Below, piece after piece: positions 24,905 to 43,571 of a stretch of DNA of 64,000 nucleotides. Both the position numbers and the translations under genes were made by a program. How positions within the stretch are numbered: position 1 is the first letter of the stretch; each line of letters begins with the position of its first letter. Under the pieces are notes generated by a model. It had not been told where the DNA came from and made no database searches. It saw only the letters and a program-made list of their open reading frames with translations. The DNA comes from Gemmatimonadales bacterium (GTDB taxonomy: Bacteria; Gemmatimonadota; Gemmatimonadetes; Gemmatimonadales; GWC2-71-9): NCBI GenBank assembly GCA_965249575.1, contig OZ252244.1, positions 527,127-591,126 of the forward strand. The letters run 5' to 3'.

Positions 24905-26320
24905 TCAGCTCACTTTGTTCGGCGTTGGTGCGCCCTCCGGTCCGTTGTCCCAGTCCTGCGCGCTCGAGACGTTGGGCACGCCCCACTGGTGACCGTTCCA
25001 CCCCTCGAAGCCGTCTAATCGAAAAGCCCAGAAGCCCGAGTCGAGATCGGTCATCACAATCAACCCGTCGGCATTACGCACGTCGATCCCCCAGCCGCCC
25101 TCGTACACGCTGTTACCTCGACCGTGAGCATAGGTCTCCTGCCAACCAGCAACGCCGATGCCGTGCCGATAGGGTGCCGGCCGGGTGGAATAGAACCCAA
25201 TCGAATAGGGATTCGAGGGATCCATCCAGTTGAGGACGTGGAACCCGTCGGTCTGTCCGGCAATGAATACGTAGGGCCAGCGCACCTCGGAGTAGTGTGG
25301 CGTGCCTTCGGGACTCGCGTTCCAGGCCCCGATGGGACGTGAGACGGCTCGTACTTCTCCGTCGTATGCGGGCTTCAAGTCGACGATCCGGATGGGTGCG
25401 TACCAATCCTCGAGATGCGACATGACGATGGCGTACCGGCCGTCTGGCGTCGGCGTGAACGTGTGATGCCCTGACATGCCGGCGATGTTCGTGGCCGACA
25501 CCAGGAGCTCCGGGTGCTCGGGATCGGTGATGTCAAAGACGTGGGCGCCGCCCGATCCCGCGCCGTAGAATTTGTCCTGCCTCGTGGCGGGATCGTAACC
25601 CACATAAAAGTCGTGCCATGCTGGCCGGGTCGTGTACGTGACCTCATTGAGGTTGGGAATCACGACCTTCCCGACCACGATCTCCGGATGACCCGCCACG
25701 ATCCGGTCGACGTCGTAGATGTAAGCCTCTGGCGAGACCGTCTGAGTCACGACGAGCGCCGCTCCGCTCGAATGCTTGTACGCGAACGTCTCGTGGAAAC
25801 CGCCCGGGTGCTCGGGGACACGGATCCGGGCGACCTCCCTGATGGTCGAGGTGTCCGGGAGCCCCGTGACGTCCCAGACGATCGCGCCGAGATCCGTGTT
25901 GGGACCACCCTGCCGGAATTGGAACCCGTTGAAGAAGTAATACCGGCCGTTGGTCTTTACGTACGCTGGCGCCAGCGAGCCCGGCCCACGGTGCAGCGCG
26001 GCGTCCTCGATGCGCCACGAGTAGATGAGCTTGGGGTTGGACGGATCCTTGATGCTCAGGATGTCGAACCCGATGGTGGGATCCGTGGCTCCGACGTGAT
26101 TAGACCGATCGATGTACACGTACGGTCGCGACAGCTCCTGTTCCAGCTCGATATCCGAAACGTTGTACGGACCAGAGGCATCGTGCGGCGGGAGGTGCGA
26201 CATTAGGCGAACGTTGGCGCTTCGCGCTTCGCCCGGTAGCGGGTTTGGACGGTACTCCTGAGGCCCCGCCGCCGTCGCGACGACCAGCAGTGTTGCAGCG
26301 AGAAATGGAAAGCTCGGCAT
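24905..26320 (-). CDS. Secreted beta-propeller protein, LVIVD-repeat-like, paralog A (most divergent)
   Basis: The likely start is ATG at 26320 (MPSFPFLAATLLVVATAAGPQ); the track start at 26356 is longer. Alignable end to end with 28990-30393, 30562-31914 and 37649-39013: PGGFHETFAYKHSSG, WHDFYVGYDPATRQDKFYG, GHHTFTPTPDGRYA, SEVRWPYVFIAG, DVRNADGLIVMTD, FEGWNGHQWGVPNVSSAQDWDNGPEGAP. Confidence 0.8.
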   Translation of the reverse strand: MPSFPFLAATLLVVATAAGPQEYRPNPLPGEARSANVRLMSHLPPHDASGPYNVSDIELEQELSRPYVYIDRSNHVGATDPTIGFDILSIKDPSNPKLIYSWRIEDAALHRGPGSLAPAYVKTNGRYYFFNGFQFRQGGPNTDLGAIVWDVTGLPDTSTIREVARIRVPEHPGGFHETFAYKHSSGAALVVTQTVSPEAYIYDVDRIVAGHPEIVVGKVVIPNLNEVTYTTRPAWHDFYVGYDPATRQDKFYGAGSGGAHVFDITDPEHPELLVSATNIAGMSGHHTFTPTPDGRYAIVMSHLEDWYAPIRIVDLKPAYDGEVRAVSRPIGAWNASPEGTPHYSEVRWPYVFIAGQTDGFHVLNWMDPSNPYSIGFYSTRPAPYRHGIGVAGWQETYAHGRGNSVYEGGWGIDVRNADGLIVMTDLDSGFWAFRLDGFEGWNGHQWGVPNVSSAQDWDNGPEGAPTPNKVS

Positions 26321-26546
26321 GTCTTCGCCCTCGACGATGGGGATGATGCTTAACATGCGGGCCGCTGCGCGGGATCGCCAACCCCCTCTGGCCTTCCGCC
26401 CCGGATCCGAGATACGGACTGCGACCGCGAGATTTGCGATCTCACCCCGGAGCGTTCATAATGAATGGAATTTCACACCTGACGGCACGCTCGTCTCGGG
26501 CGTCCACTCCTGGATGGCCGCGGGCCGAACGGACAGTGATGGCGGC

Positions 26547-28910
26547 ATGCAACTCCTTCTTTTTCTAACCGTCCTCCAGACTAGCGCCGAGCCCGTGCAG
26601 ACGCCCGCACCCGCATTCGCGCCGGCGGTATTCCACGGGCGACGCAATCAGACTGACGTCGCGCTCCCGCGCCTAGAGACCGACGTCGTCATCGATGGAA
26701 TACTCGACGAGGACGTGTGGCGACGCGCCGCTGTTCTTACGGGATTCTCCCAGTTCTCGCCGGTGGACGGTCGTCCGGCGGACGATTCGACCGACGTGCT
26801 CGTGTGGTACGCGCCCACGGCGATCTACTTCGGGATCCGCGCCTTCGCCGACCCGGGCACTGTCCGAGCGACCCTTGCGGACCGTGACAAGCTCACCGGC
26901 GACGACTTCTTTCAAATCCTGCTCGACACCTTCGACGACGGTCGCCAGGCGCTGGTGTTTGCCGTTAACCCGCTGGGGGTGCAGGCCGATGGTGTCCGCA
27001 CGGAGTCACAGCAGGGCGCGCGACGGGGGAACAACGAGGCCACCGACGACGAAGTCGACCTCAGTCCCGACTTCGTATTCGAGTCCCGCGGCCGGCTCAC
27101 CGAATGGGGTTACGCGGTAGAAGTCCGCATTCCGTTCAAGAGCATCCGGTACCGGTCCGTCGAGATCCAGCGCTGGCGACTGAATATTCTCCGGAAGGTT
27201 CAGGCAACGGGATACGAGCACACCTGGACCCCGGCGCGGCGGGCGAACGCGTCGTTCCTGGCTCAATCCGGGAGGTTGCAGGGTCTGCGATCCTTGAGCC
27301 GAGGTCTGGTACTCGACATCAACCCAGAAACGACGGCGAAAATCGACGGCACCCGGGGCACCACGGGTTGGGATTACGAGACGACCCGGCCGGAGCTGGG
27401 CGGCAACGTCCGCTGGGGTGTGACCACGAATCTGAGCCTCGCCGCGACCGCCAATCCAGACTTCTCCAACATCGAAGCGGACGTAGCGCAGGCGCCGAGC
27501 GATCCACGGTTCGCAGTGTCGTTTCCAGAGAAACGGCCTTTCTTCCTCGAGGGAAGCGAGCAGTTCGCGGCCCGGAACTCGCTGATCTACACACGGCGGA
27601 TCGCGGACCCGGTGGGCGCGCTCAAGCTTGCGGGCAAGGCTTCGGGCATCAATGTCGGGCTGCTATCCGCCGTCGACGCTCGCATTACTTCCGCCACAGG
27701 GAACGACTACCCGGTGTTCAACGTTCTGCGGCTCAAGGGAGACCTCGGGCCGCAGTCCAGCGCGGGGGTGGTGTATACCGACCGGATCGAAGGATCGGAT
27801 TACAATCGGCTGGCGGTCGCCGACGCCCGGCTCGTGTTCGGAGGCATCTACTCCTTCGAGATGCAGGCTGGGCAGAGCTTCACACGCACCGGGGGAGTGA
27901 GTACCCGAGGCCCGATTTGGGAAGGTGCCATTGATCGGAATGGTCGGAGGTTTGGCTTCAACCTCCGCGTGACCGGCATCCACCCCGACTTCGAGGCCCA
28001 GACGGGCTTCATCCGGCGGCGGGGATTCATCCAGCCGAGCTTCCGGGCGCGACACACCGTATACGGACGCCCAGGAGCCGCGCTCGAGCGCTACCAGCTC
28101 GGTTTCTTCACCTATGGATATTGGCGCTACGACGACTTCTTCGGGGAGCGGGTACCCTACGAGCATCAGCTCGGCTTCCAAAACAACTTCGTGCTGCGGG
28201 GTGGGTGGAGCTTGCGGATAAACCCGATCTGGGAATCAATCGACTTCGATCCCGATTTTTTCGCCGACTACGGGGTCGAACGCCAGCTTCCGGGCGGCTC
28301 GGTCGACACGGTCGGGTTCGTCGTCCCGGGACGCATTCACAATTGGGGAATCTCCGGTGGGTTCTCGACGCCGCAGCTCAAGCGCTTTGCCGCGTCATTC
28401 GGAGGCGTCATAGCACATGACATCGCATGGTTCGAACGCCGCGAGGCACTGCTGCTGTCCTTGCGTCCCGCGGCGACGTGGCGGCCATCCGACCGGATCC
28501 GGATCGAAGCGCAGCACACCCACCTGGAGTTCCGCCGGTTCAGCGACTGGTCGAGGTTCATCACGGCGGACATCCCGCGGCTCAAGGTCGAATACCAGGT
28601 CTCCCGGCCCCTCTTCGTGCGTCTGGTCGCGCAGTACGAGGCTCGCATTCACGATGCGTTCCGCGACCCGCGCACGGAGGAGCCCATCCTGATCCGGCCC
28701 GGTCCCGGCCTGCCCTACGAGGCCACCCAGCGAAGCGAAACCAATCGGCTTCGCGTGGACTGGTTGTTCTCCTACCGCCCGAACCCGGGCACCGTGCTCT
28801 TTCTGGGATACGGCTCGAGTCTCGATGAGACAAGCGCGTTCTCGTTCCGAAATCTGTCTCGTACCAGTGACGGGTTCTTCGCCAAGCTCAGCTATCTGTT
28901 TCGGATGTGA
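26547..28910 (+). CDS. DUF5916-type protein with N-terminal CBM9-like domain (outer-membrane-type)
   Basis: The probable start is ATG at 26547 (MQLLLFLTVLQTSAEP) or 26514; the track start at 26319 overlaps the divergent gene. ..VVIDGILDEDVWRRAAVLTGFSQFSPVDGRPADDSTDVLVWYAPTAIYFGIRAF..DDFFQILLDTFDDGRQALVFAVNPLGVQADG.. A long beta-rich C-terminal part ends ..GFFAKLSYLFRM. Confidence 0.7.
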   Translation: MQLLLFLTVLQTSAEPVQTPAPAFAPAVFHGRRNQTDVALPRLETDVVIDGILDEDVWRRAAVLTGFSQFSPVDGRPADDSTDVLVWYAPTAIYFGIRAFADPGTVRATLADRDKLTGDDFFQILLDTFDDGRQALVFAVNPLGVQADGVRTESQQGARRGNNEATDDEVDLSPDFVFESRGRLTEWGYAVEVRIPFKSIRYRSVEIQRWRLNILRKVQATGYEHTWTPARRANASFLAQSGRLQGLRSLSRGLVLDINPETTAKIDGTRGTTGWDYETTRPELGGNVRWGVTTNLSLAATANPDFSNIEADVAQAPSDPRFAVSFPEKRPFFLEGSEQFAARNSLIYTRRIADPVGALKLAGKASGINVGLLSAVDARITSATGNDYPVFNVLRLKGDLGPQSSAGVVYTDRIEGSDYNRLAVADARLVFGGIYSFEMQAGQSFTRTGGVSTRGPIWEGAIDRNGRRFGFNLRVTGIHPDFEAQTGFIRRRGFIQPSFRARHTVYGRPGAALERYQLGFFTYGYWRYDDFFGERVPYEHQLGFQNNFVLRGGWSLRINPIWESIDFDPDFFADYGVERQLPGGSVDTVGFVVPGRIHNWGISGGFSTPQLKRFAASFGGVIAHDIAWFERREALLLSLRPAATWRPSDRIRIEAQHTHLEFRRFSDWSRFITADIPRLKVEYQVSRPLFVRLVAQYEARIHDAFRDPRTEEPILIRPGPGLPYEATQRSETNRLRVDWLFSYRPNPGTVLFLGYGSSLDETSAFSFRNLSRTSDGFFAKLSYLFRM

Positions 28911-28989
28911 CGACGCATTGCGCATTGGGCGATGACGAATGACAATGAAAAATGAATCTCCCCCTTCTCGGTCTTCAGAGGATATATCA

Positions 28990-30393
28990 ATGATTCGCAA
29001 GAACACCCCCGCTCCCGTGCGCCCAGCCGTGTTCGTGTTGCTCCTGCTCGTCGGTGTCGCCGGCGTGGCCCAGGCACAGTACCCTCCCGGCGAGCAGGGG
29101 AGCCGCAACGTGCGCATCATGTCCCATCTACCCCTCGGCCGTGCGTTCAGCGTATCGGACATCGAGATGGAACAGGAACTCTCGCGCCCATACGTGTACG
29201 TCGCGCGAATGTTGGTACACGGCACCGAGATCATCAGCATCAAGGATCCGGAGAACGCCGAGGTGATTTACTCGTGGCGGATCGACAATCCCGAGCTACA
29301 CCAAGGGAACGGCGGGATGGACAACAAGTACTTCAAGCTCAAGGGCCGATATTACGACGTTCAGTCGTTTCAGTTCGGCCGGAGTGGTCCGGACGCCGAC
29401 GTTGGGGCGGTCGTGCTAGACGTCACGAGCTTGCCCGACGTATCGAAGGTCAAGGAAGTCGGTCGTATCCGGGCGCCGGATCGACCAGGGGGCTTTCACA
29501 ACATCTTCGCGTACAAGCACTCCGACGGCAGGGTGCTGCTGTTCACGACAACCACCGGACCCTCGGTGAACGTCTACGACATGGAGCGGTTCCTCGCCGG
29601 GGATTCGCGACAGGGCTACGTGGGCAGCATCCCGACGCCTGACAACGCGACGGCCGGGATGCCGGAGTTTCTCTCACGCGCACTCCCAGGGTACCACGAC
29701 GTCTACGTAGGCTACGACCCCGCCACTCGCCAGGACAAGTTCTACGGTGGTGGCGCGGGTGGTTACTACATTTACGACGTGAGCCGGGTTGAGGCACCGA
29801 CACTCGTGACCTCAGTAACTGGAATGGCTGGGGTACCGTTCGGGCACACGTTCACGCCCACGCCCGATGGCCGGTATGCCGTCCTCGAGACGGAGTATCA
29901 GTACGCACCGTTGCGGATCGTGGACCTGAAACCGGGCCTGGATGGTGAGGTCAGAACAGTCTCACGACCTATCGGTGCCTGGACCGCGCGCTGGCAGGGG
30001 CTTCCGCACAATCACGAGGTGCGTTGGCCCTATGTGTTCGTCTCCCACTATGAGGATGGCCTGCACATCTTCAACATGACGGATCCGACGAACCCGTATA
30101 CCGTTGGTTACTACGACTCCTACGACGGGCCCCACCAGCGGGGGTACGGCGGAGCCAATGACCCGGAAAGTAGCACGGGAGTCACCAGCGGAGCGTTTGG
30201 CGTGGATGTTCGCAACGCGGACGGGCTCATCGTACTGAGCGACTTCAGGACCGGCTTCTGGGCGTTCAAGATGGACGGCTTCGACGGCTGGAACGGCCAC
30301 CAATGGGGCATGCCGAACGTGTCATCGGTCCAGGACTGGGATAACGGACCGGAGGGCGCCCCAACGGCCGCGCGCGTGAGCGCGCGCGAGTGA
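28990..30393 (+). CDS. Secreted beta-propeller protein, paralog B
   Basis: The likely start is ATG at 28990 (MIRKNTPAPVRPAVFVLLLLVGVAGVAQA/QYPPGEQGS); the track start is 28939. It lies 79 nt downstream of the DUF5916 gene on the same strand. Confidence 0.85.
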   Translation: MIRKNTPAPVRPAVFVLLLLVGVAGVAQAQYPPGEQGSRNVRIMSHLPLGRAFSVSDIEMEQELSRPYVYVARMLVHGTEIISIKDPENAEVIYSWRIDNPELHQGNGGMDNKYFKLKGRYYDVQSFQFGRSGPDADVGAVVLDVTSLPDVSKVKEVGRIRAPDRPGGFHNIFAYKHSDGRVLLFTTTTGPSVNVYDMERFLAGDSRQGYVGSIPTPDNATAGMPEFLSRALPGYHDVYVGYDPATRQDKFYGGGAGGYYIYDVSRVEAPTLVTSVTGMAGVPFGHTFTPTPDGRYAVLETEYQYAPLRIVDLKPGLDGEVRTVSRPIGAWTARWQGLPHNHEVRWPYVFVSHYEDGLHIFNMTDPTNPYTVGYYDSYDGPHQRGYGGANDPESSTGVTSGAFGVDVRNADGLIVLSDFRTGFWAFKMDGFDGWNGHQWGMPNVSSVQDWDNGPEGAPTAARVSARE

Positions 30394-30561: not shown

Positions 30562-31914
30562 TCAGCTCACCCTCGTCGGCCCGGTCGCCCCGTCCGGTCC
30601 ATTATCCCAATCTTGCGCCGACGAGATATTCGGCACCCCCCACCGATGGCCATTCCAGCCGTCGAACCCGTCCATTCTCATGGTCCAGAACCCCGTATAC
30701 ATGTCGCCGACAACGATGAGCCCGTCGGCGTTTCGCACGTCCACCCCGAACGCACCGTTGTCCACTACCGTGCCGTTCTCGGGATCGTCGATCCCTCCAA
30801 ACCCCCGCTGATGGGGCCCCTCGTAGGTGTCGTAGTATCCGACAGAATACGGATTTGCCGGATCCATCACGTTGATCACATGCAGGCCGTCCTCGTAGCC
30901 GGCCACGAACACGTACGGCCAGCGCACCTCCAAGTTGTGAACCACGTTCCGCCAGTCGGGAGTCCAGGCACCTACCGGACGGGAAACGGTTTGCACGTCG
31001 CCCTCTAAGCCCGGCTCGAGGTCGAATACCCTTACGGGCGCGAACTGGTACGCCGTGCTCTCCAGAGCGTATCGTCCGTCGGGTGTTGGCGTAAACGTGT
31101 GCCCCCGCGTAATTCCCGCCACGCCGGCGACCGTGGTGAGGAGCCTGGGGGTCTCTGGAAGACTGACGTCGAACACGAAGTACGCCCCCCCGGCTCCGTA
31201 GAACTTGTCTTGGCGACTCGCCGGGTCATATCCGACGTAGAGGTCGTGGTAGACCCTGTACGTCGAGGGATCGTCTGGGAGCGGGATGCGCGATACGAGC
31301 CCGGCGTTTGGATCTCCGGCGAGAAAGCGTCCCATATCGTAAACGTTGGCGTGGCGCCCCGCGGTCGTGGTGAACAGCAACACCCGCCCATCGGAGTGTT
31401 TGTAGGCGAAGATATTGTGAAAGCCGCCGGGGGTGTCGGCGGCACGAATGCGGCCCACCTCCTCTATGAGGCTCGTGTCCGGAAGGCCCGTGACATCCAA
31501 CACGACCGCGCCCAAATCCGCGTCGGGACTGGCAGTGACGAACTGGAAGGACTGTATGTCGTAGTAACGGCCTCCCAGCTTGAAGTACTTGTTATCCATG
31601 GCGCCGACGCCGCGGTGCAGCTCGGGCTCCCCGATCCGCCAGTAGTAGAGGATCCGGGGCCTGCGCGGATCTCGAACGTCGATGATGTTGAGCCCCGCCG
31701 AGTGCGTGGACCCGTGCATGCGAGAGACATATGCGAAGGGGCGGGAGAGCTCCTGCTCGAGCTCCACATCGGTGACGGTGAACTGACGCCCGAGCCCGAT
31801 GTGAGCGAGTATGTCCATGTTCGTGCTTCCCTGCTGTCCGGGTGGGTATTGCCCACCGACGGGACTCGCCAGTAGCGACCCGAGCCCCACCAGAAATACG
31901 TAACGCCAGTACAT
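30562..31914 (-). CDS. Secreted beta-propeller protein, paralog C
   Basis: The likely start is ATG at 31914, preceded by TCAGGAGACGAC (MYWRYVFLVGLGSLLASPVGG/QYPPGQQGS). The track start at 32166 would overlap the upstream gene. Confidence 0.85.
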   Translation of the reverse strand: MYWRYVFLVGLGSLLASPVGGQYPPGQQGSTNMDILAHIGLGRQFTVTDVELEQELSRPFAYVSRMHGSTHSAGLNIIDVRDPRRPRILYYWRIGEPELHRGVGAMDNKYFKLGGRYYDIQSFQFVTASPDADLGAVVLDVTGLPDTSLIEEVGRIRAADTPGGFHNIFAYKHSDGRVLLFTTTAGRHANVYDMGRFLAGDPNAGLVSRIPLPDDPSTYRVYHDLYVGYDPASRQDKFYGAGGAYFVFDVSLPETPRLLTTVAGVAGITRGHTFTPTPDGRYALESTAYQFAPVRVFDLEPGLEGDVQTVSRPVGAWTPDWRNVVHNLEVRWPYVFVAGYEDGLHVINVMDPANPYSVGYYDTYEGPHQRGFGGIDDPENGTVVDNGAFGVDVRNADGLIVVGDMYTGFWTMRMDGFDGWNGHRWGVPNISSAQDWDNGPDGATGPTRVS

Positions 31915-32006
31915 GTCGTCTCCTGAGAAGGGCATGGCGCGGAGAGGCCCGCCCGTCAGCCGTGTGCAGCGCTGGTCAGGCGGTGTGACCTCCCCTCCGT
32001 CACCAT

Positions 32007-32396
32007 TTACCCCGGACTCTTCAAGTGCGATGGACGCGGCGTGAGTACCATCAGCACCACGCCGATAATGATCAGGGCCGGCACGTCTCCGATCAGGTTC
32101 GCTCGCTCCCCGGGATCGGCGACCGCCTGGACCAGCATGATCAACCCATGGATGAGGGTCTGCCATGCCGCAAACCAGATCAGGCTCAAGTGCTCCAGAG
32201 GATTGCGCGCAGCGAGAAAGAGGAAAACGCCAAGCACTGCAATGGTGCCGAGGATCATCTGCTCGTACTCACTCTGGCGCGGCTCCCAGGCAAACCCAGC
32301 GGGCCACAGCTGCATGAGCGGGAAGACACCGACAACGAAGATGACACCGATGATTCTCAGCGCAATACTGAGCGCAGCCGTGTTGGGTGCGGCCAT
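32007..32396 (-). CDS. Four-TM membrane protein, hypothetical; 92 nt upstream of paralog C on the same strand
   Basis: 129 aa. LRIIGVIFVVGVFPLMQLW, ILGTIAVLGVFLFLAA, LIWFAAWQTLIHGLIMLV, IGDVPALIIIGVVLMVL. Confidence 0.6.
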   Translation of the reverse strand: MAAPNTAALSIALRIIGVIFVVGVFPLMQLWPAGFAWEPRQSEYEQMILGTIAVLGVFLFLAARNPLEHLSLIWFAAWQTLIHGLIMLVQAVADPGERANLIGDVPALIIIGVVLMVLTPRPSHLKSPG

Positions 32397-32621: not shown

Positions 32622-33536
32622 GTGCTCGAGATTCTGGGTTCCTTCGACGCCAAGGTCTGGCTTCTTATCTGCCTGGCCGTCGTGGCCGCGTACTTCGGAT
32701 TCCAGTTCCTGAGGGCGGTTCTAAGGAGAAGGGGTAAGGCGGATACCGGGATCGCGCCGAGCGGCGGGCAACTCGCCACCGGCTTCGTGACGAACTTCTT
32801 CGACACGCTGGGGATCGGCTCCTTCGCGCCGACCACCTCCGCGTTCAAGTTCTGGCGCATGGTCCCCGATGAACGCATCCCGGGCACGCTGAACGTCGGT
32901 CACACGCTCCCCGTGATACTTCAGACGTTCATCTACACCCGTATCGTGCCCGTCGAAGCACCAACGCTGATTCTCATGATCGGTGGAGCCGTGGCCGGCG
33001 CCTGGCTCGGCGCCGGCGTCGTCGCGGGGCTGCCACGGCGAACGATTCAACTCGGCATGGGAGGTGCGCTCGTTGCCGCCGCTGGCCTGATGGTGACCGC
33101 GCAAGTGGGTCTTCTACCCACCGGCGGCGAGGCGTTAGGGCTGCGGGGCCCTCTCCTCGGTGTTGCCGTGGCGAGCAACTTCGTGCTCGGTGCACTCATG
33201 ACGTTGGGCATTGGGCTGTGCGCGCGCTGCATGATTCTGGTGAGCCTGCTCGGCATGAACCCCATCTCGGCCTTCCCGATCATGATGGGCTCCTGCGCGT
33301 TTCTCATGCCGGTCGGCAGCACCAGGTTCGTGCGCAAGGGAAGCTTCAGCGCGCGGGCCGCCATCGGACTCACCGTGGGCGGTCTGCCAGCTATCCTCCT
33401 TGCGGCGTTTCTCGTCAAATCGCTGCCGCTGACGGCCGTTCGATGGCTGGTCATCGTCGTGGTGCTCTACGCGGCGATCGCGCTGCTGCGGTCGGCGCAC
33501 CTCGGCCGGGCGCCTGCCCCGGCGGCCGTGAGCTGA
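32622..33536 (+). CDS. TauE/SafE (TSUP) family anion exporter-like permease
   Basis: 304 aa, GTG start, polytopic. ..GFVTNFFDTLGIGSFAPTT..GGAVAGAWLGAGVVAGLP..LTVGGLPAILLAAFLVKSLP.. Confidence 0.7.
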   Translation: MLEILGSFDAKVWLLICLAVVAAYFGFQFLRAVLRRRGKADTGIAPSGGQLATGFVTNFFDTLGIGSFAPTTSAFKFWRMVPDERIPGTLNVGHTLPVILQTFIYTRIVPVEAPTLILMIGGAVAGAWLGAGVVAGLPRRTIQLGMGGALVAAAGLMVTAQVGLLPTGGEALGLRGPLLGVAVASNFVLGALMTLGIGLCARCMILVSLLGMNPISAFPIMMGSCAFLMPVGSTRFVRKGSFSARAAIGLTVGGLPAILLAAFLVKSLPLTAVRWLVIVVVLYAAIALLRSAHLGRAPAPAAVS

Positions 33537-36001: not shown

Positions 36002-37534
36002 ATGTTTACTCGCAAGTCCCCTAGTCCAGCACTAGGTGCGGTTCTGCTTGCCGCGGCCAGCCTCGCTGTTGGCGCGTGCTCCGAGACGGTACTGACCGGG
36101 CCAAGCGGGTTGAGCCAGGTCGGGGTTTTCGATGAGATCAGCCTGTCGGCGTTCGAGCAGATGCTGAGTGCGAACGACGGAAGCATGCAGATAACACTCG
36201 GGTCCAGCGGCATGACGGCAGGTGAAGTCGCGCTAGCGCCGGCCGATGGCTCGGGAGATCACGAGCGCATCGACAGCCATGTGACGGGTGTCCAACTGAA
36301 CGGTGATGCCGGGACCCTGCTGCTAGAGCTCGGCGGTCTTTCGGTGTCCTTCGACGCACACACGCGATTCCGTTCCAAGACCGGCGACGACCTGTCGCTA
36401 GCCGCCTTTATCGAACGCCTGGAGGCCGCGTTGGCCGAGGGGGATGTGGCCGCGGTACGGGCTCTCCGGCTGGTCACCGATCACCCGCGGAGTCCCGACG
36501 ACGCGTCTTTCTTTGCGGTCGAGCTCCGGCTCCTCACCGGTGAAGGGCCCTTCGAGATCGAGATGTTGGTCAACCGGGACAATTTCATCCCGAATGACAA
36601 CCCTCCACCGGACGGCTGGATCAAGGTGTTGGACCTCCTGATCGAAGTCTCCGTCAGCGACGGCCGCACACGGCTCGAGGAGAAGCGGTCCGACCCCGAC
36701 GCGGACTTCGTCGATTTCGAAGGACGCATCCGCTCCGTGGATCTCGAGCAGCACTCCTTTACGCTGGGCGATGGGACGGTCGTCTACCTGGCAGAGGATA
36801 CGAGGATCAAGTTCAAGCGCGGTGATGAGCACCGCCTCCCCTCGCTCGCCGCGGTTGCCGAGGCCGTACGGTCCGGGAAAGAGGTGTTCACGGCGGGCGA
36901 AGCGATGGTCAGGGGCCGCGAACCACTCACGCTCGTCGCGATTCACGTCGTTTTCGAAGTCGAGCCACCGCCGCTCGAAGACTTCAGAGGCATAGTTAGA
37001 TCCGTAAACGAATCCGAGCACACCGTCACGCTCGCCGATGGAATCGTCGTGCGTCTCACGGAGGATACCCGAATCAAGTTCGAAGAAGGATCTCCACACC
37101 ACCTTCGGACGCTCGGGGCCGTCGCCGAGGCGCTGCGCGCAGGCGAGACGGTTTTCGCCGCCGGTGAAGGTCGCGTGGTCGGCATCGAGCCGCTGGCGAT
37201 CGTGGCGAAGTGGGCGGTGTTCGAGGTCGAAGGCCCGCCAGTCGAGGACTTCGAGGGAGTTGTCGAATCGGTGGATCCGGCTGCGCACACCGCAACACTC
37301 ACCAATGGTCTCACGTTGCAGCTCACCGGTGACTCGCACATCAAATACGAGCCCGGCGATTCCAGGCGCCTGCCTTCTCTCGAGACGGTCGCAGAGGCTC
37401 TCCGGAACGGCGAGACTGTCGTAGCGCACGGGGCGGGAACGGTCGAAGAGTCCGCAAGCTCCCGTACGATCGTGGCGCACTGGGTGTTGTTCGAGGTGGA
37501 GAATACAGTCACACCCGCACCCGTCCCCGAGTGA
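36002..37534 (+). CDS. Lipoprotein with four DUF5666-like ~85-aa tandem repeats
   Basis: Signal/lipobox LLAAASLAVGAC. Three clear repeats: FEGRIRSVDLEQHSFTLGDGTVVYLAEDTRIKFKRGDEHRLPSLAAVAEAVRSGKEV.., FRGIVRSVNESEHTVTLADGIVVRLTEDTRIKFEEGSPHHLRTLGAVAEALRAGETV.., FEGVVESVDPAAHTATLTNGLTLQLTGDSHIKYEPGDSRRLPSLETVAEALRNGETV... One degenerate copy lies upstream. Confidence 0.75.
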   Translation: MFTRKSPSPALGAVLLAAASLAVGACSETVLTGPSGLSQVGVFDEISLSAFEQMLSANDGSMQITLGSSGMTAGEVALAPADGSGDHERIDSHVTGVQLNGDAGTLLLELGGLSVSFDAHTRFRSKTGDDLSLAAFIERLEAALAEGDVAAVRALRLVTDHPRSPDDASFFAVELRLLTGEGPFEIEMLVNRDNFIPNDNPPPDGWIKVLDLLIEVSVSDGRTRLEEKRSDPDADFVDFEGRIRSVDLEQHSFTLGDGTVVYLAEDTRIKFKRGDEHRLPSLAAVAEAVRSGKEVFTAGEAMVRGREPLTLVAIHVVFEVEPPPLEDFRGIVRSVNESEHTVTLADGIVVRLTEDTRIKFEEGSPHHLRTLGAVAEALRAGETVFAAGEGRVVGIEPLAIVAKWAVFEVEGPPVEDFEGVVESVDPAAHTATLTNGLTLQLTGDSHIKYEPGDSRRLPSLETVAEALRNGETVVAHGAGTVEESASSRTIVAHWVLFEVENTVTPAPVPE

Positions 37535-37648: not shown

Positions 37649-39013
37649 TCACTCGAGCGCGCTCACACGCGCCGGCGCCGGTGCCCCATCCGGCCCGTTG
37701 TCCCAATCCTGCGCGCTGGAGATGTTCGGCATTCCCCACTGATGACCGTTCCAGCCGTCAAAGCCGTCCATCCTGAAAGCCCAGAACCCAGTCGTCATGT
37801 CACTGATCACGACGAGACCATCCGCATTTCGAACGTCGATCCCGAAGGCGCCGTTTGAAACGCCCGTCCCCGTCTCCGGGGTATCGATTCCTCCCCAACC
37901 GCGCTGGTGCGGCCCGTCGTACGTGTCGTAGTAGCCGACCGTATAGGGGTTCGTTGGGTCCATCATGTTGAAAACGTGGAGGCCGTCCTCGTAGGTCGAC
38001 ACGAAAACGTACGGCCACCGGACCTCGTGATTGTGCGGCAGCCCCTGCCACCGAGCCGTCCAGGCGCCGATGGGACGACTGATCGTCTGCACTTCCTTGT
38101 CCAAGCCCGGCTTCAAGTCGAAGAGCCGAAGCGGAGCGTACTGATATTCCGTTTCCGCGACGGCGTAGCGCCCGTCCGGAGTTGGCGTGAAGGTGTGGCC
38201 GTTGGCCATTCCCGCAGCCCCGGTGATCGACGTCAGCAGTTTCGGCTCCTCAGGGCGAGTGACGTCGTAAATGTGATAGCCGCCCGACCCCGGTCCGTAG
38301 TACTTGTCCTGCCGCGTGGCGGGGTCGTAGGCAATGTAGAAGTCGTGGTACCCCCGTTGCGGCGCGAGTGGATTCTCGGGCACCGGTACGCGACCGATCA
38401 ACCCCTGTCTCGGGTCACCCGCCAGGAACTTCTGCATGTCGTAGATGTTGGAGTGTGGTCCCGTCGCCGTCGTGAACAGGAGCACCCGTCCATCGGAGTG
38501 TTTGTAGGCGAAAATGTTGTGAAATCCGCCCGGCGTTTCGGGTGCGCGGATGCGCCCAACTTCCCGAACCTGCGTCGTGTCCGGGAGACCGGTTACGTCC
38601 ACCACGACGGCACCCAGATCAGCGTTTGGGCTGCCCTGTGCGATCTGGAAGGATTGAACGTCGTAGTACCGCCCGCCGAGCTTGAAGTACTTGTTGTCCA
38701 TACCGCCCATGCCCCGGTGCAGGTCCGCATCCTCGATCACCCACGAGTAGAGGTGCTCGGCGTCATCGGGGTCCTTCAGTCCGATGATGGTGAACCCCAT
38801 CGAGCTCGTGCTCCCGTGCATCCGGGCCACGTACGCGAACGGCCGCGACATCTCCTGTTCGATCTCGATGTCGGCCACCGTGAACGTCCTGCCCAGTGGG
38901 ATGTGCGAGAGAATGCGGACGTTCCGGCTTCCCTGTTGTCCTGGCGGATATTGAGCCTCCGCCGTGGGTGCGACCAGCAAGACAAGAGTCGCAATGATCG
39001 CCTGGTTTTTCAT
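37649..39013 (-). CDS. Secreted beta-propeller protein, paralog D
   Basis: 454 aa. MKNQAIIATLVLLVAPTAEA/QYPPGQQGSRNVRILSH.. Long runs identical to paralog B (PGGFHNIFAYKHSDGRVLLFTT, GHTFTPTPDGRYAV, LPHNHEVRWPYVFVS, FDGWNGHQWGMPN). Confidence 0.9.
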   Translation of the reverse strand: MKNQAIIATLVLLVAPTAEAQYPPGQQGSRNVRILSHIPLGRTFTVADIEIEQEMSRPFAYVARMHGSTSSMGFTIIGLKDPDDAEHLYSWVIEDADLHRGMGGMDNKYFKLGGRYYDVQSFQIAQGSPNADLGAVVVDVTGLPDTTQVREVGRIRAPETPGGFHNIFAYKHSDGRVLLFTTATGPHSNIYDMQKFLAGDPRQGLIGRVPVPENPLAPQRGYHDFYIAYDPATRQDKYYGPGSGGYHIYDVTRPEEPKLLTSITGAAGMANGHTFTPTPDGRYAVAETEYQYAPLRLFDLKPGLDKEVQTISRPIGAWTARWQGLPHNHEVRWPYVFVSTYEDGLHVFNMMDPTNPYTVGYYDTYDGPHQRGWGGIDTPETGTGVSNGAFGIDVRNADGLVVISDMTTGFWAFRMDGFDGWNGHQWGMPNISSAQDWDNGPDGAPAPARVSALE

Positions 39014-40712: not shown

Positions 40713-43571
40713 ATGATCGATCAGGTCCGCAGAGCACTCGCCGGTCTATACCGAATCGACCGGGAGTTGGGACAGGGTGGAATGGCGGCCGTCTTTCTGG
40801 CCGAGGACCTCAAGCATCACCGGCCCGTGGCCGTCAAGGTGCTGCGGCACGACCTCGCCGCGTCCTTGGGGTCAGAGCGCTTCCTTCGCGAGATCGAGAT
40901 CGCGGCCCGGTTGAATCACCCGCACATCCTCCCGGTCCACGATTCCGGCGCGTCTGACGGGGTGCTCTACTACGTCATGCCGGTGGTCGAGGGCGAGTCG
41001 CTGCGGCAGCTGATGAACCGGGAAAAGCAGCTTCCCGTTGAACAAACGCTCGAGATCGCGAGGCAGGTCGCGTCGGCCCTCGACTACGCGCACCGGCAGG
41101 GGGTCGTGCACCGCGATATCAAGCCGGAGAACGTCATGCTCCACCAAGGCGAAGCCATGGTGATGGACTTCGGCATTGCCCTGGCGGTGAGCGCGGTGGA
41201 GGGCGAGCGGCTCACGGGCACCGGCTTGGCGATCGGTACGCCAGCATACATGAGCCCCGAGCAGGCGACTGGGAGCGCCGCAATCGACGCCCGCAGCGAT
41301 ATCTACAGCTTGGGCTGTGTCGTATACGAAATGCTGGCCGGCGAGCCACCATACACGGGCCCGACCCCCCAAGCTATCATGGCACGAAGCCTCACCGATG
41401 AAGCGCCCAAGATCCACACTATTCGTCGCGCCGTCCCCGAGTCCGTCGATGCTGCGGTGGCCCAAGCTCTATCCACGACCCCGGCCGACCGCCCCGGGAC
41501 CGCCGGGGAGTTCGTTGCCATGCTCTCCAGCAGTGCTACCGGTGTGAGACGGCGCGGACGCCGCAACGTCCCCCAATCGCTCATGGCAGCCGGGATCGCC
41601 GGGTTGCTCGTTGCCGCAGGGCTTTTTTGGGCATGGCCGCGCGCCGCTGCCAGCTCAGTGACCCCTGGCACCGAGGTCCTCGCCGTCGTGCCCTTCAACG
41701 CGGTGGGGGCAGATGTCGAAGTGCTCGGCGAAGGAATGATCGACCTCCTGTCCACCAACCTCGACGGCGTCGGAGGCATCCGGACGGTCGACCCGGGCAC
41801 CGTGTTGAGCCGGTGGCACAGACGCTCCGATGGAGGCGGTGGGTTGGAGACGGCGCTGGCGGTAGGACGGGAGGTCGAGGCCGGCTCGATCCTCACGGGA
41901 AGCGCGGTGCAAGCGGGCAACAGCGTCCGAATCACGGCGGATCTCTATCTCGTGGACGGGCAGAAGCTCGCCACCGCGTCCATCGACGGACCAACCGACA
42001 GCGTTCTGACATTGGTGGACAGCCTGAGCCTTCGGTTGGTTCGCGAGATCTGGCGAGCTCAGGAGCCCCTCCCCGGCCTGCGGGTCAGCGCAATCACTAC
42101 CGGTTCGGCGGACGCGATTCGCGCGTACCTGAGGGGGGAGCAGTACTACCGTCGCGCAGAGTGGGATTCCGCGATCGTCTCTTTTCAGGAAGCCGTGGAT
42201 GCCGATTCGACCTTCGCCCTCGCCTACGCACGGCTGGGATTCAGCCACGGCTGGGTCACGTCACTCTTCGGCAGGCCGTTTGCCGAGGCAGTGGCAGCGG
42301 CCGCCAGGCTCGCAGATCGGCTCCCCGAGCGGGATCGCTCGCTGGTGGTCGCGGGACAGCTCTTCGGCGAATTCAGCCTCGCGGGCCTGGACACCATGCG
42401 AGCCTACGTGGCGCGGTATCCGGGCGATGCCGACGGGTGGTTCCTGCTGGGCGATATCCAATACCACGCCCAGCCGATTCTGGCGCTCAGTCCCGACGAC
42501 TATTACGGGCCCTTTGAGCGAGCCGTGGAACTCAACCCGTCACTCGCCGCCGCGCTAATCCATCCCATCGAGCTCAGCCTCAGCACCGGCGACAGCGTGC
42601 GGTTCGCACGGTATCGTGAGCTCTACGAACAGGTGGGGGGAGACCTCCCCGCCGACCTGGGCTCCCTGAATGCCATCGCGTGGAGCCGCTCCGATACGAC
42701 TCTCAAGGCCGTGCGGCGGGCCTTTCGCGAGATCCGCCTGCTCTACGGGAGGTTCCCGGCTTTGTTCTACGGGTCACCGGCGCTCACGCCCCAGGATCTC
42801 CTAGTCGGCCTGGAGATGCCCGCGCGCCTACCGGCTGGTCTCCCCCCAGGCGCCAACCTGATGCAGCGTGGGTCGGTCTTGCAGAGCCTCGGGCGTCTGG
42901 CAGAGGCCAGGGTAGTTGCCGAGTCCCTCAAGGCCTACGATCAGATAGCCGGATATCAGATGCTGCTGGCCCCACTGTTTGGCGGCTACGCGTCCCCATC
43001 CCTCGCTGACGAAGCGGTGGACCTACTTGCACGCATCTCCCCCGATAGCGCACCGCACCGGGCGATCGTCAGCCTGGGTCTCAAGGACCTCGAGGGTGCC
43101 CGTCAGGCGATTCGGCTGGGGCTAGACCCAGATTTCGAGCTCACCCAGGGCCCGCCCAAATGGCGCAACCTCTTCACGGCAGCAGCAGGTTCACTCAAGC
43201 TGCTCGAGGGAGACACAGCCTCCGGTGTGCAGGAGCTTCGAGCCGCATTCGACGAGATCGGTTTCGGAAACCTGGCATATGCCGTGACTCCGCTCCGATT
43301 CCAGCTGGCAGCGACCCTCGCCGCACGGCCCCAGACCCGGGCCGAGGGCATCCGCCGGCTGCGGTGGGGCTTTCCCTACGCGCCTCAATATCGTGCAGTC
43401 GGCCACATGCTGATCGCGCGCGCACTCGAAGCTGAGGGAGACCGCACCGGAGCCGCCGATGCCTACGCGGAGGTATTGCGGCTCTGGAAGGGCGCGGACC
43501 CGGAGCTCCAGCCCATGGTTCGGGATGTCCGCGACGCGCTCACCCGCCTGACCGCCGAGCCGGTAAACTAG
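40713..43571 (+). CDS. Ser/Thr protein kinase with TM, periplasmic module and long TPR-like C-terminal region (kinase f, 952 aa)
   Basis: MIDQVRRALAGLYRIDRELGQGGMAAVFLAEDLKHHRPVAVK..VVHRDIKPENVML..DFGIALAVSAVEGERLTGTGLAIGTPAYMSPEQ; a TM segment LMAAGIAGLLVAAGLFWAW; VLAVVPFNAVGADVEVLGEGMIDLL. Confidence 0.92.
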   Translation: MIDQVRRALAGLYRIDRELGQGGMAAVFLAEDLKHHRPVAVKVLRHDLAASLGSERFLREIEIAARLNHPHILPVHDSGASDGVLYYVMPVVEGESLRQLMNREKQLPVEQTLEIARQVASALDYAHRQGVVHRDIKPENVMLHQGEAMVMDFGIALAVSAVEGERLTGTGLAIGTPAYMSPEQATGSAAIDARSDIYSLGCVVYEMLAGEPPYTGPTPQAIMARSLTDEAPKIHTIRRAVPESVDAAVAQALSTTPADRPGTAGEFVAMLSSSATGVRRRGRRNVPQSLMAAGIAGLLVAAGLFWAWPRAAASSVTPGTEVLAVVPFNAVGADVEVLGEGMIDLLSTNLDGVGGIRTVDPGTVLSRWHRRSDGGGGLETALAVGREVEAGSILTGSAVQAGNSVRITADLYLVDGQKLATASIDGPTDSVLTLVDSLSLRLVREIWRAQEPLPGLRVSAITTGSADAIRAYLRGEQYYRRAEWDSAIVSFQEAVDADSTFALAYARLGFSHGWVTSLFGRPFAEAVAAAARLADRLPERDRSLVVAGQLFGEFSLAGLDTMRAYVARYPGDADGWFLLGDIQYHAQPILALSPDDYYGPFERAVELNPSLAAALIHPIELSLSTGDSVRFARYRELYEQVGGDLPADLGSLNAIAWSRSDTTLKAVRRAFREIRLLYGRFPALFYGSPALTPQDLLVGLEMPARLPAGLPPGANLMQRGSVLQSLGRLAEARVVAESLKAYDQIAGYQMLLAPLFGGYASPSLADEAVDLLARISPDSAPHRAIVSLGLKDLEGARQAIRLGLDPDFELTQGPPKWRNLFTAAAGSLKLLEGDTASGVQELRAAFDEIGFGNLAYAVTPLRFQLAATLAARPQTRAEGIRRLRWGFPYAPQYRAVGHMLIARALEAEGDRTGAADAYAEVLRLWKGADPELQPMVRDVRDALTRLTAEPVN

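Follow-up and report, generated by a model that had tools for sequence, protein, structure and literature searches.

Candidate metal-site histidines in a secreted LVIVD-type β-propeller from a Gemmatimonadales bacterium

Genes at the locus

The window, by which we mean the whole 64,000-nucleotide stretch of Gemmatimonadales DNA that was analysed, contains four paralogous propeller genes, here called A to D.

24905..26356, minus strand: paralog A, 483 amino acids; an M28 peptidase gene lies 18 bp downstream on the same strand
28939..30393, plus strand: paralog B, 484 amino acids; a DUF5916 gene lies upstream in the same orientation and ends 28 bp from it
30562..32166, minus strand: paralog C, preceded by a DUF6632 gene at 32007-32396 (minus strand)
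37649..39013, minus strand: paralog D, a 454-amino-acid secreted seven-bladed LVIVD-type β-propeller (open reading frame and AlphaFold2 model)

The true start of paralog C is probably at 31914, which would give a protein of 450 residues. Paralogs A, B and C are 53-73% identical to D. The surroundings of the window paralogs, and of other copies not linked to an oxidase, are rich in hydrolase genes: M28 and S58 peptidases, amidohydrolases and an S9 peptidase, together with SusC/SusD-like pairs. A preliminary description of this DNA had speculated that a neighbouring TauE/SafE-type exporter pointed to small-anion or sulfur chemistry. This suggestion is not borne out, since the TauE gene (32622-33536) adjoins paralog C and not D, occurs just once in the surroundings of 122 family genes and does not recur in 78 related loci. 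A CusF-like match in the DUF5666 protein adjoining D (E=0.0018) was under the cut-off and the gene is convergently oriented; it was not counted as evidence.

Fold, export and family of protein D

The AlphaFold2 model of D (pLDDT 89.8) contains 28 strands arranged as seven blades of four, with the chain ending approximately 40 residues past blade 7. Two further features flank the propeller.

38954..39013, minus strand: Sec-type signal peptide, residues 1-20 (MKNQAIIATLVLLVAPTAEA, followed by QY), read from the sequence; residues 2-19 are helical in the model
37685..37765, minus strand: Trp/Gly-rich C-terminal tail, residues 417-443 (GFDGWNGHQWGMPNISSAQDWDNGPDG), which includes His424; model confidence 67-80

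By sequence reading, the signal peptide contains no twin-arginine motif. The mature N-terminus, QYPPGxQGS, is conserved among the paralogs, and residues W421, G423, Q435, W437 and P441 of the tail are conserved even among distant members of the family.

The LVIVD family (PF08309) is defined by tandem four-strand propeller repeats of approximately 42 residues, an architecture that the seven-bladed model of D displays. At the sequence level the Pfam cut-off of 20.2 bits is reached by a close relative (P0096, 31.1 bits); C scores 15.2 bits, and D, A and B give no match. Against choice-of-anchor B (TIGR04312) the window paralogs score 15-36 bits, where the cut-off is 100 bits, and only the last ~90 of the 364 model positions are covered; they do not qualify for that family. 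The weak matches to both models lie over blades 6-7, and residues 324-370 of D are matched up to 19 times in multi-repeat proteins.

The D family comprises more than 2800 sequence clusters, all without a name and with every member annotated as hypothetical. It is found mainly in Gemmatimonadota, and occurs commonly in Gemmatimonadota and Acidobacteriota from soil, groundwater and lakes. A total of 497 loci was confirmed in species-representative genomes, a set that is skewed toward the histidine-bearing subfamily because one of the search patterns was HTFTP[TD]P[DT]G. One 3.86-Mb contig alone carries at least 19 copies. No functional description was found in the literature searched for LVIVD, choice-of-anchor B, and an oxidase paired with a propeller.

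Conservation of the histidines

The preliminary description had singled out nine histidine motifs as invariant among the four paralogs and proposed that they mark a multi-histidine metal centre. All nine motifs are present, and a four-way alignment confirms the invariance of H37, H99, H165, H172, H223, H273, H327, H346 and H424 (D numbering). Among four paralogs this alike, such invariance is not above chance: 9 of 15 histidines are invariant versus 174 of 419 other residues (p=0.12 in a one-sided Fisher test). The signal is real only once more sequences are added; in 204 relatives at ≥55% identity, 6 of 15 histidines are at least 97% conserved versus 65 of 419 other residues (p=0.023). The six that reach this level in the approximately 200 closer relatives are H37, H165, H172, H223, H273 and H327. 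In close relatives H99 is at least 93% and H424 approximately 85% conserved, while the position of H346 is usually occupied by Gln, with His in approximately 20%.

Loss of these residues in the wider family had been named beforehand as a result that would refute the proposal, and below approximately 45% identity conservation does fail: nearly all nine histidines are gone together, H172 excepted, and the fold signature is retained. Among 138 sequences, 117 have all five of H99, H165, H223, H273 and H327, 12 have four, and nine have three or fewer, from which these five residues appear to be kept or lost largely as a unit.

Relationship to a two-manganese phosphotriesterase

When D was searched against the PDB as a single sequence only noise was obtained. 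With a family profile (hmmsearch), the only significant matches were to the haloalkylphosphorus hydrolase (phosphotriesterase) of Sphingobium sp. TCM1, hereafter Sb-PTE (PDB 5HRM/5IOJ), a member of the "LVIVD repeat-containing protein" family with a two-manganese centre. These matches (E=6.7e-4 and 1.3e-3 for 5hrm/5ioj) consist of fragmentary domains. The same structure, 5hrm, ranks second among the Foldseek matches of the D model, with a TM-score of 0.41. Clear full-length homology between D and Sb-PTE was found neither by hmmsearch nor by hhalign, and the similarity is marginal (22% identity over the aligned part; hhalign probability 9-38%). Weak LVIVD and choice-of-anchor B matches are common to both families.

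The metal ligands of Sb-PTE are reported to be E201, H258, H317, H389, E407 and H475 (abstract of Mabanglo et al. 2016). At these positions, and at the six disulfide cysteines, the residue types are correct in an ortholog sequence (the full sequence, from a Sphingobium plasmid), and the six ligands are invariant in 39 members of the Sb-PTE family. The residues of D that bear on the comparison are as follows.

38717..38719, minus strand: His99, lying two residues ahead of blade 2 strand A; its topological counterpart in Sb-PTE is the bridging Glu201
38519..38521, minus strand: His165 (GGFH), lying two residues ahead of blade 3 strand A; counterpart of His258 in Sb-PTE
38345..38347, minus strand: His223 (YHD), lying three residues ahead of blade 4 strand A; counterpart of His317 in Sb-PTE
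38195..38197, minus strand: His273 (GHTFTPTPDG), lying two residues ahead of blade 5 strand A; counterpart of His389 in Sb-PTE
38147..38155, minus strand: Glu287-Thr-Glu289, directly past strand B of blade 5 (DSSP); equivalent of Sb-PTE Glu407
38024..38035, minus strand: His327-Asn-His329-Glu330, where blade 6 strand A begins; His327 is the counterpart of His475 in Sb-PTE
38498..38500, minus strand: His172 (YKHSDG), at the far end of blade 3 strand A, on the face opposite to that of His165
38903..38905, minus strand: His37, one residue short of the end of the N-terminal closing strand, which is the outer strand in blade 7; outside the ligand positions
37976..37978, minus strand: His346 (DGLHV), within blade 6 strand C; its invariance is confined to the four paralogs

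In every hhalign register the histidines of D fall on ligand histidines of Sb-PTE, with the local alignments slipping between blades; the register that is collinear in blade 5 pairs H273 with H389, E289 with E407 and P294 with P412. In the AlphaFold models of the two proteins these residues are placed alike, at the beginning of strand A in blades 2-6 and immediately past strand B in blade 5. Within D, the five site histidines lie two to three residues ahead of, or two residues into, strand A of these blades, and blades 1 and 7 lack the histidine before strand A. When the six ligands of Sb-PTE are sought in D, topology and weak alignments give a positional match for H165, H223, H273, H327 and E287/289, and would place His99 where Sb-PTE has its bridging glutamate. 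Asp106 of D also aligns near Glu201, and is present in only 57% of close relatives.

Conservation at the candidate site is high, reaching about 100% for H165, H223, H273 and H327. H165 is found in 155 of 155 close relatives, H273 in 151 of 151 and H327 in 154 of 156; Asp224, adjoining His223, is 99% conserved, E330 98%, E287 and E289 94% each, and H329 approximately 80%. The glutamate past strand B of blade 5, which is not a repeat position, co-varies with the five histidines. Paralogs A and C have the acidic residue shifted by one to three positions from Glu287/289, and also lack H329.

A metal centre therefore remains the best reading for five of the nine histidines, H99, H165, H223, H273 and H327, which mark the innermost-strand starts of five consecutive blades and, with Glu287/289, occupy ligand positions of Sb-PTE. 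The other four are removed from the proposed centre: H346 by the usual Gln, H37 and H424 by their peripheral topology, and H172 by its place at the opposite strand end and its persistence without the other histidines. H172 is retained in 20 of 23 members of the wide family, including members without the other histidines, and because of this persistence, and of its distance along the blade 3 strand from His165, it is probably structural. The position of His37 is His in the Sb-PTE family consensus and Arg in Sb-PTE itself.

Association with multicopper oxidases

Of 122 family genes, 47 have a complete CueO/CopA-like multicopper oxidase no more than two genes away. At 27 loci the oxidase is immediately upstream of the propeller in the same orientation, the gap measuring -75 to 108 bp, and both gene orders occur; this sister clade is operonic with the oxidase. 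The best-scoring models for the latter are CueO and copper-resistance CopA, and it possesses a Met-rich N-terminal segment (8.3% Met against a background of 2.1%). The oxidase-linked propellers carry Sec-type signals and retain H99 (45/45), H165, H223, H273, H327 and H329, as well as E287, E289 and E330, in 44-45 of 45 sequences; H424 is present in 20 of the 45.

No oxidase lies beside any of the window's four copies. Of the paralogs listed for the window genome, 24 were tested, and not one has an oxidase-linked nearest relative. The window's copies are a separate expansion, unlinked to the oxidase.

Proposed function and alternatives

D is probably a metalloenzyme of the Sec-exported propeller kind, because five histidines and a glutamate occupy the two-manganese ligand positions of the only solved relative. 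On balance, the positional match to the Sb-PTE ligands, the conservation and the oxidase context lead us to favour a metal centre placed where the central tunnel has its mouth. In this scheme D would be exported by Sec and be periplasmic or secreted; the side chains of H99, H165, H223, H273, H327 and E287/E289 would, as topology and homology suggest, converge at the tunnel mouth and coordinate one or two metal ions. One metal is predicted to be bound by three His, and the other by two His together with a carboxylate. Zinc or copper would be the favoured metal for a His-rich site exported by Sec, and a metal-bound water or hydroxide could attack a small substrate at the tunnel mouth. That the reaction of D is specifically a hydrolysis is a tentative proposal, offered with rather less confidence than the metal centre itself. 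Counting against the metal centre are the displacement of E287/289 in A and C, the loss of the bridging carboxylate of Sb-PTE, the existence of a structural histidine at a like position in WD40 repeats, the marginal homology to Sb-PTE, the relatives below 45% identity that are devoid of the histidines, and the location of the window copies away from the oxidase.

The oxidase of the sister clade invites a different chemistry, which takes up the copper-site analogy of the preliminary description: the histidine ring would bind two or three copper ions, like a type-3 centre or the sites of thiocyanate dehydrogenase and NosZ, and the propeller would oxidise a small substrate, passing the electrons to the multicopper oxidase for the reduction of O2. 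His-rich sites that fold in the periplasm tend to acquire Cu or Zn. The tight operonic pairing of the sister clade with a complete CueO/CopA-like oxidase bearing a Met-rich segment, the Sec-type signals of the paired propellers and their near-complete retention of six histidines (H99, H165, H223, H273, H327 and H329), which is enough for two 3-His copper sites, all favour this idea, as does the precedent of thiocyanate dehydrogenase, a seven-bladed propeller with three Cu ions in its central tunnel (PMC9456337). We nevertheless consider it unlikely, given that conserved Cys or Met ligands are absent, the only characterised relative is a hydrolase, the window paralogs belong to the non-oxidase-linked clade and sit among hydrolase genes, H329 drops to approximately 80% in close relatives and is missing from A and C, and neither sequence nor the top 50 fold matches link D to NosZ or thiocyanate dehydrogenase. 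It is similarly improbable that these propellers with their His ring represent a novel kind of periplasmic copper protein, in which two or three copper ions sit on an LVIVD propeller in a site convergent with those of type-3 centres, thiocyanate dehydrogenase or CuZ. They would then act as the substrate-oxidising partner of a CopA/CueO-type oxidase, the two proteins forming one oxidase system, and would have expanded to ~20 copies in some Gemmatimonadota for different substrates. The oxidase might instead be served by a protein without catalytic activity, the His-lined tunnel mouth sequestering periplasmic copper or passing it to the CopA/CueO-type enzyme in the place of CopB/CopC in classical cop operons. 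The 27 loci at which the propeller directly follows the oxidase, and the affinity of the latter to the CueO and copper-resistance CopA models together with its Met-rich segment, agree with such a role. It is, however, highly improbable: at least 19 paralogs on one 3.86-Mb contig, many of them adjoining peptidases and uptake systems, would not be expected of an accessory of copper homeostasis, and the ligand geometry matches the catalytic centre of the solved relative.

A further question is whether the histidines bind metal at all. In WD40 repeats a structural "GH" histidine recurs before strand A of each blade, and the histidines of D might likewise brace each blade by hydrogen bonds in a metal-free binding scaffold. 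They do stand at the same repeat position in successive blades, distant members hold the fold signature without them, and LVIVD proteins are usually credited with surface or adhesion roles (PMC2447325; bioRxiv 10.1101/2022.05.06.490989). Structural repeat residues usually vanish piecemeal, whereas those of the D family are mostly kept or lost together; moreover, blades 1 and 7 lack the histidine, the non-repeat Glu past strand B of blade 5 co-varies with the others, and in Sb-PTE these six positions have been proven to bind metal. A purely structural role is accordingly a poor prospect in our view, and the metal centre is retained as the preferred reading.

This reading concerns a family that is large, secreted and annotated as hypothetical throughout. 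The six-residue candidate site is a direct target for metal analysis and point mutants. The oxidase pairing of the sister clade points to a two-protein periplasmic module, of which no description was found in the literature searched.

Comparison with known systems

The LVIVD and choice-of-anchor B families have no metal site in their descriptions, and neither has an assigned function. NosZ is a seven-bladed propeller in which seven histidines hold the multi-His CuZ cluster in the central tunnel, and it carries a C-terminal cupredoxin CuA domain. D lacks a cupredoxin domain, unlike NosZ; no cupredoxin or NosZ match was obtained in Pfam or NCBIfam, and both NosZ and thiocyanate dehydrogenase are absent from the PDB sequence matches (E up to 10) and from the top 50 Foldseek matches. 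The resemblance to these two enzymes drawn in the preliminary description thus stays an analogy, and the nearest precedent is the two-manganese hydrolase. In the di-zinc centre of B3 metallo-β-lactamases three His bind one metal and two His plus a carboxylate the other. The ligand make-up predicted for D would be the same on an entirely different fold, a likeness of chemistry only.

Sb-PTE differs from D in several respects. Its bridging Glu201 corresponds to a His in D, and its three disulfides (C146-C242, C411-C443 and C542-C559), whose cysteines are invariant or ≥90% conserved across the Sb-PTE family, are absent from D because D has no Cys. D is also ~130 residues shorter and without the long N-terminal region, and the relatives of Sb-PTE are found in Sphingomonadaceae and other Proteobacteria. 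Sb-PTE hydrolyses man-made flame retardants, and we know of no ancestral function for it. Both proteins are seven-bladed LVIVD-type propellers sharing the local motifs H-x-hydrophobic-T-x-[ST]-P-[DN]-G-R and GGFH, and the D family may be a natural relative of Sb-PTE.

Propeller genes and their surroundings

The secreted propeller protein D is accompanied in the window by three paralogs (A, B, and C). The four genes and those around them are as follows:

20726-22159 (-), amidohydrolase, nearby
23300-24886 (-), M28 peptidase, 18 bp downstream of A
24905-26356 (-), A, paralog of D
26319-28910 (+), DUF5916 protein, 28 bp upstream of B
28939-30393 (+), B, paralog of D
30562-32166 (-), C, paralog of D, listed ORF of 534 aa
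32007-32396 (-), DUF6632 membrane protein (E=3e-31), directly upstream of C on the same strand
32622-33536, TauE gene, near C, not D
37649-39013 (-), D, ORF of 454 aa
39253-40443 (+), S58 (DmpA-type) peptidase, divergent from D

In a second assembly of this region, C is annotated with 450 aa; the listed ORF therefore probably starts too far upstream, the likelier extent being 30562-31914 (-). No propeller copies beyond these four were found within the window by tblastn. A-C are 53-73% identical to D, and all four proteins possess an N-terminal Sec-type signal peptide and the mature N-terminus QYPPGxQGS. No Pfam family was found for A-D, the LVIVD-repeat match in C being sub-threshold; the only NCBIfam matches, to choice-of-anchor-B over the last two blades, are likewise sub-threshold. 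The full scan of 1.84 billion representatives returned 3026 family matches, 156 of them at <1e-30; more than 2800 clusters matched at E ≤1e-3, every named one being a "hypothetical protein." At least 19 paralogs of D reside on its own 3.86-Mb contig. In species-representative genomes, 497 loci were confirmed; of these, the 78 best belong nearly all to the Gemmatimonadota (Gemmatimonadales, Longimicrobiales), with some Acidobacteriota. Broadly defined, the LVIVD-type propeller superfamily includes D. Searchable literature yielded no description of its family, of the candidate site discussed below, or of the pairing with an oxidase.

The four genes lie among genes whose products are likely secreted and degradative, and propeller copies elsewhere that are unlinked to the oxidase adjoin amidohydrolases, an S9 peptidase, and SusC/SusD-like pairs. 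The preliminary description had speculatively connected the propellers with small-anion or sulfur chemistry through a TauE/SafE-type neighbor; this gene lies near C rather than D, and does not recur among the neighbors of 122 propeller genes.

Two further features of the window were observed. Convergent with D is a gene for a 510-aa protein (36002-37534, +) containing about three internal repeats of ~100 aa each, with DUF5666, DUF1344, and FecR-like matches and a sub-threshold CusF-like match (E=0.0018). Four genes encode Ser/Thr kinases with TPR-type C-terminal regions (3830-5582 (-), 6583-8403, 9001-11418 (-), and 40713-43571 (+)); in the first, a break between the DFG and APE motifs leaves two overlapping ORFs, reflecting either a frameshift or an assembly error.

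Predicted fold and conservation of the histidines

The AlphaFold2 model of D, built with a 51-sequence alignment (pLDDT 89.8, pTM 0.88), contains 28 strands forming seven four-stranded blades, the last closed by the N-terminal strand 32-38. Histidine positions were read from the strand topology of this model, and wider conservation was counted over 274 sequences aligned to D.

Histidines of D: position in the model (strand A innermost, D outermost) and conservation in relatives at ≥55% identity
H37: end of the outer closing strand; about 100%
H99: 2 residues before strand A, blade 2; ≥93%
H165: 2 residues before strand A, blade 3; about 100%
H172: far end of strand A3, opposite face; about 100%
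H223: 3 residues before strand A, blade 4; about 100%
H273: 2 residues before strand A, blade 5; about 100%
H327: 2 residues into strand A, blade 6; about 100%
H329: absent from the preliminary list; about 80%
H346: strand C of blade 6; about 20%, Gln usual
H424: C-terminal tail; about 85%

A four-way alignment bears out the earlier observation that nine histidines, each in its listed motif, are invariant in A-D (H37, H99, H165, H172, H223, H273, H327, H346, and H424). This is not evidence on its own: because the paralogs are 53-73% identical to D, such invariance says little, and it extends to 9/15 His versus 174/419 other residues (p=0.12). In the close clade, His residues fall in the most conserved columns more often than other residues do (6/15 versus 65/419; p=0.023). 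Conservation of the core histidines, high at ≥55% identity, declines to about 65-90% at 45-55%, and below 45% nearly all are replaced by Arg, Glu, Asp, or Thr, the exceptions being H172 (9/15) and H37 (6/11). H99, H165, H223, H273, and H327 are mostly retained or lost jointly, with all five in 117 of 138 sequences, four in 12, and three or fewer in 9. Within the subfamily of D, conservation is 94% for E287 and for E289, and 98% for E330.

The suggestion of a multi-histidine metal center is partly supported, for H99, H165, H223, H273, and H327, which stand at the innermost-strand starts of blades 2-6; H172 is on the opposite face, H37, H346, and H424 lie elsewhere, and all four fall outside the candidate site. 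By strand topology, five consecutive blades each place one such residue where the innermost strand opens, the arrangement that encircles the mouth of the central tunnel. The candidate site also includes a Glu (E287/E289) which had not been singled out.

Few parts of the whole family are better conserved than the Trp/Gly-rich C-terminal tail of D (residues 417-443; 37685-37765, -), GFDGWNGHQWGMPNISSAQDWDNGPDG, which is retained also in distant members lacking the His ring. The same is true of the A-to-B turn residues R57, Y170/H172, D236, D280, R332/W333, and R395/D398, which lie on the face opposite the ring. Tail and turns may serve as a plug, lid, or second site.

Multicopper oxidase neighbor in relatives

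Genes were called at 78 related loci, and the neighbors of 122 propeller genes, including the four in the window, were clustered. The dominant neighbor is a ~600-aa three-domain multicopper oxidase (Pfam Cu-oxidase_3, Cu-oxidase_2, Cu-oxidase). Among NCBIfam models it matches CueO and copper-resistance CopA best, and its nearest PDB sequence matches are bacterial laccases, with CueO lower down. It lies no more than two genes away from 47 of the 122 propellers, and directly upstream on the same strand of 27, at a spacing of -75 to 108 bp; Acidobacteriota also show the opposite order.

Same-strand gene orders
Oxidase then propeller: L009, L015, L017, L035, L044, L055, L061, L063-L065, L070, and others
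Propeller then oxidase: L051, L060, L068, L071, L073

All copper motifs are present in 38/40 oxidases, and their N-terminal segment is Met-rich (8.3% versus a 2.1% background). In a neighbor-joining tree, one half comprises the oxidase-linked propellers; A-D fall in the other, a lineage-specific expansion that occurs in a few genomes and lacks this link, and none of the four copies in the window has an oxidase beside it. Oxidase-linked propellers keep the candidate ligands still more strictly (44-45 of 45 sequences), and in them position 106 is Asp or Glu in 39/45.

In 19 loci (L009:gene 3, L015:gene 0, L017:gene 3, and 16 more), the oxidase gene is preceded by one for a ~200-aa protein. This protein has no Pfam or NCBIfam match, its conserved pieces being SPFG, NKF, SPS, and a C-terminally located His. 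It is seemingly fused in frame to the oxidase in L022, L045, L046, and L053, where starts from the simple ORF caller may be overextended. In the Gemmatimonadales loci L020, L040, L043, L048, and L074, the propeller/oxidase genes (for L040, the called oxidase gene alone) are immediately preceded by genes for a SusC-like TonB-dependent receptor and a SusD-like protein, an arrangement resembling a polysaccharide-utilization-type locus outside the Bacteroidota.

Possible function

The best-supported reading, which we hold with slightly more than even confidence, is a metal center at the tunnel mouth of D, one side of which would be formed by H99, H165, and H223 and the other by H273, H327, and E287/E289. 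Three His together with two His and one carboxylate is the ligand composition of di-zinc hydrolases. Since, in addition, the one characterized relative is a hydrolase, as are neighbors of the window copies, we tentatively commit, with less than even confidence, to D being a secreted metallohydrolase.

A copper redox role for the His-ring propeller appears unlikely; it would accord with the multicopper oxidase linkage of the sister clade and with the general tendency of Sec-exported His-rich sites to load Cu or Zn. We consider it doubtful that the histidines are purely structural repeat residues, comparable to the WD40 GH motif, and improbable that the propeller is a copper-handling accessory.

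Comparison with characterized propellers

The phosphotriesterase of Sphingobium sp. TCM1 (Sb-PTE) possesses a crystallographically proven two-metal center. Its two Mn are, as Mabanglo et al. reportedly described in 2016 (Biochemistry 55:3963), held by E201 (bridging), H258, H317, H389, E407, and H475. The 583-aa ortholog from a Sphingobium plasmid used here has the right residue at all of these positions and at those of six disulfide Cys; none of the six ligands varies among 39 family members. The wide-family profile found only two significant PDB sequences, both Sb-PTE (5hrm, E=6.7e-4; 5ioj, 1.3e-3). Structure 5hrm is also the second-best Foldseek match of D, at a TM-score of only 0.41, the rest of the list being generic WD40 propellers. 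Relatives of Sb-PTE are annotated as LVIVD repeat-containing proteins, and show the same weak LVIVD and choice-of-anchor-B matches as the D family. Profile-profile alignments of the D and Sb-PTE families are weak, at a probability of 9-38%, and shift from blade to blade, as is usual for repeats; whatever the register, His of D fall on ligand His of Sb-PTE (H273 on H258; H223 on H389 with H273 on H475; H99 on H258 with H165 on H389), and the register collinear for blade 5 places H273 on H389, E289 on E407, and P294 on P412. In the AlphaFold2 models the ligands occupy the same topological addresses as the residues of D.

Topological addresses in the AlphaFold2 models (Sb-PTE; D)
E201, 2 before strand A2; H99, 2 before A2
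H258, 1 before strand A3; H165, 2 before A3
H317, inside strand A4; H223, 3 before A4
H389, start of strand A5; H273, 2 before A5
E407, 2 after strand B5; E287/E289, 1 and 3 after B5
H475, start of strand A6; H327, 2 into A6

By topology, all six positions of the two-metal center therefore appear to be filled by conserved His or Glu in the subfamily of D, the single change being His (H99) for the bridging Glu (E201). The His-less relatives are closer to D than Sb-PTE and its family; the candidate site would therefore most simply be ancestral, with later loss in those relatives.

Two Sb-PTE family members, P0273 (residues 235-273) and P0302 (180-216), gave very weak NCBIfam matches (E 0.1-0.2) to MtoX, the copper-dependent methanethiol oxidase, over a stretch containing ligand His258; these matches are not significant, but hint at a possibly wider occurrence of the ligand-bearing repeat in metallo-propellers.

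The analogy drawn earlier with NosZ and thiocyanate dehydrogenase concerns architecture alone: in the latter, the tunnel of a seven-bladed propeller houses a metal cluster (PMC9456337), and in D such a cluster is a candidate. D would work most like Sb-PTE, yet stands outside its family: homology over the full length is marginal, D lacks the disulfides, and another residue takes the bridging position.
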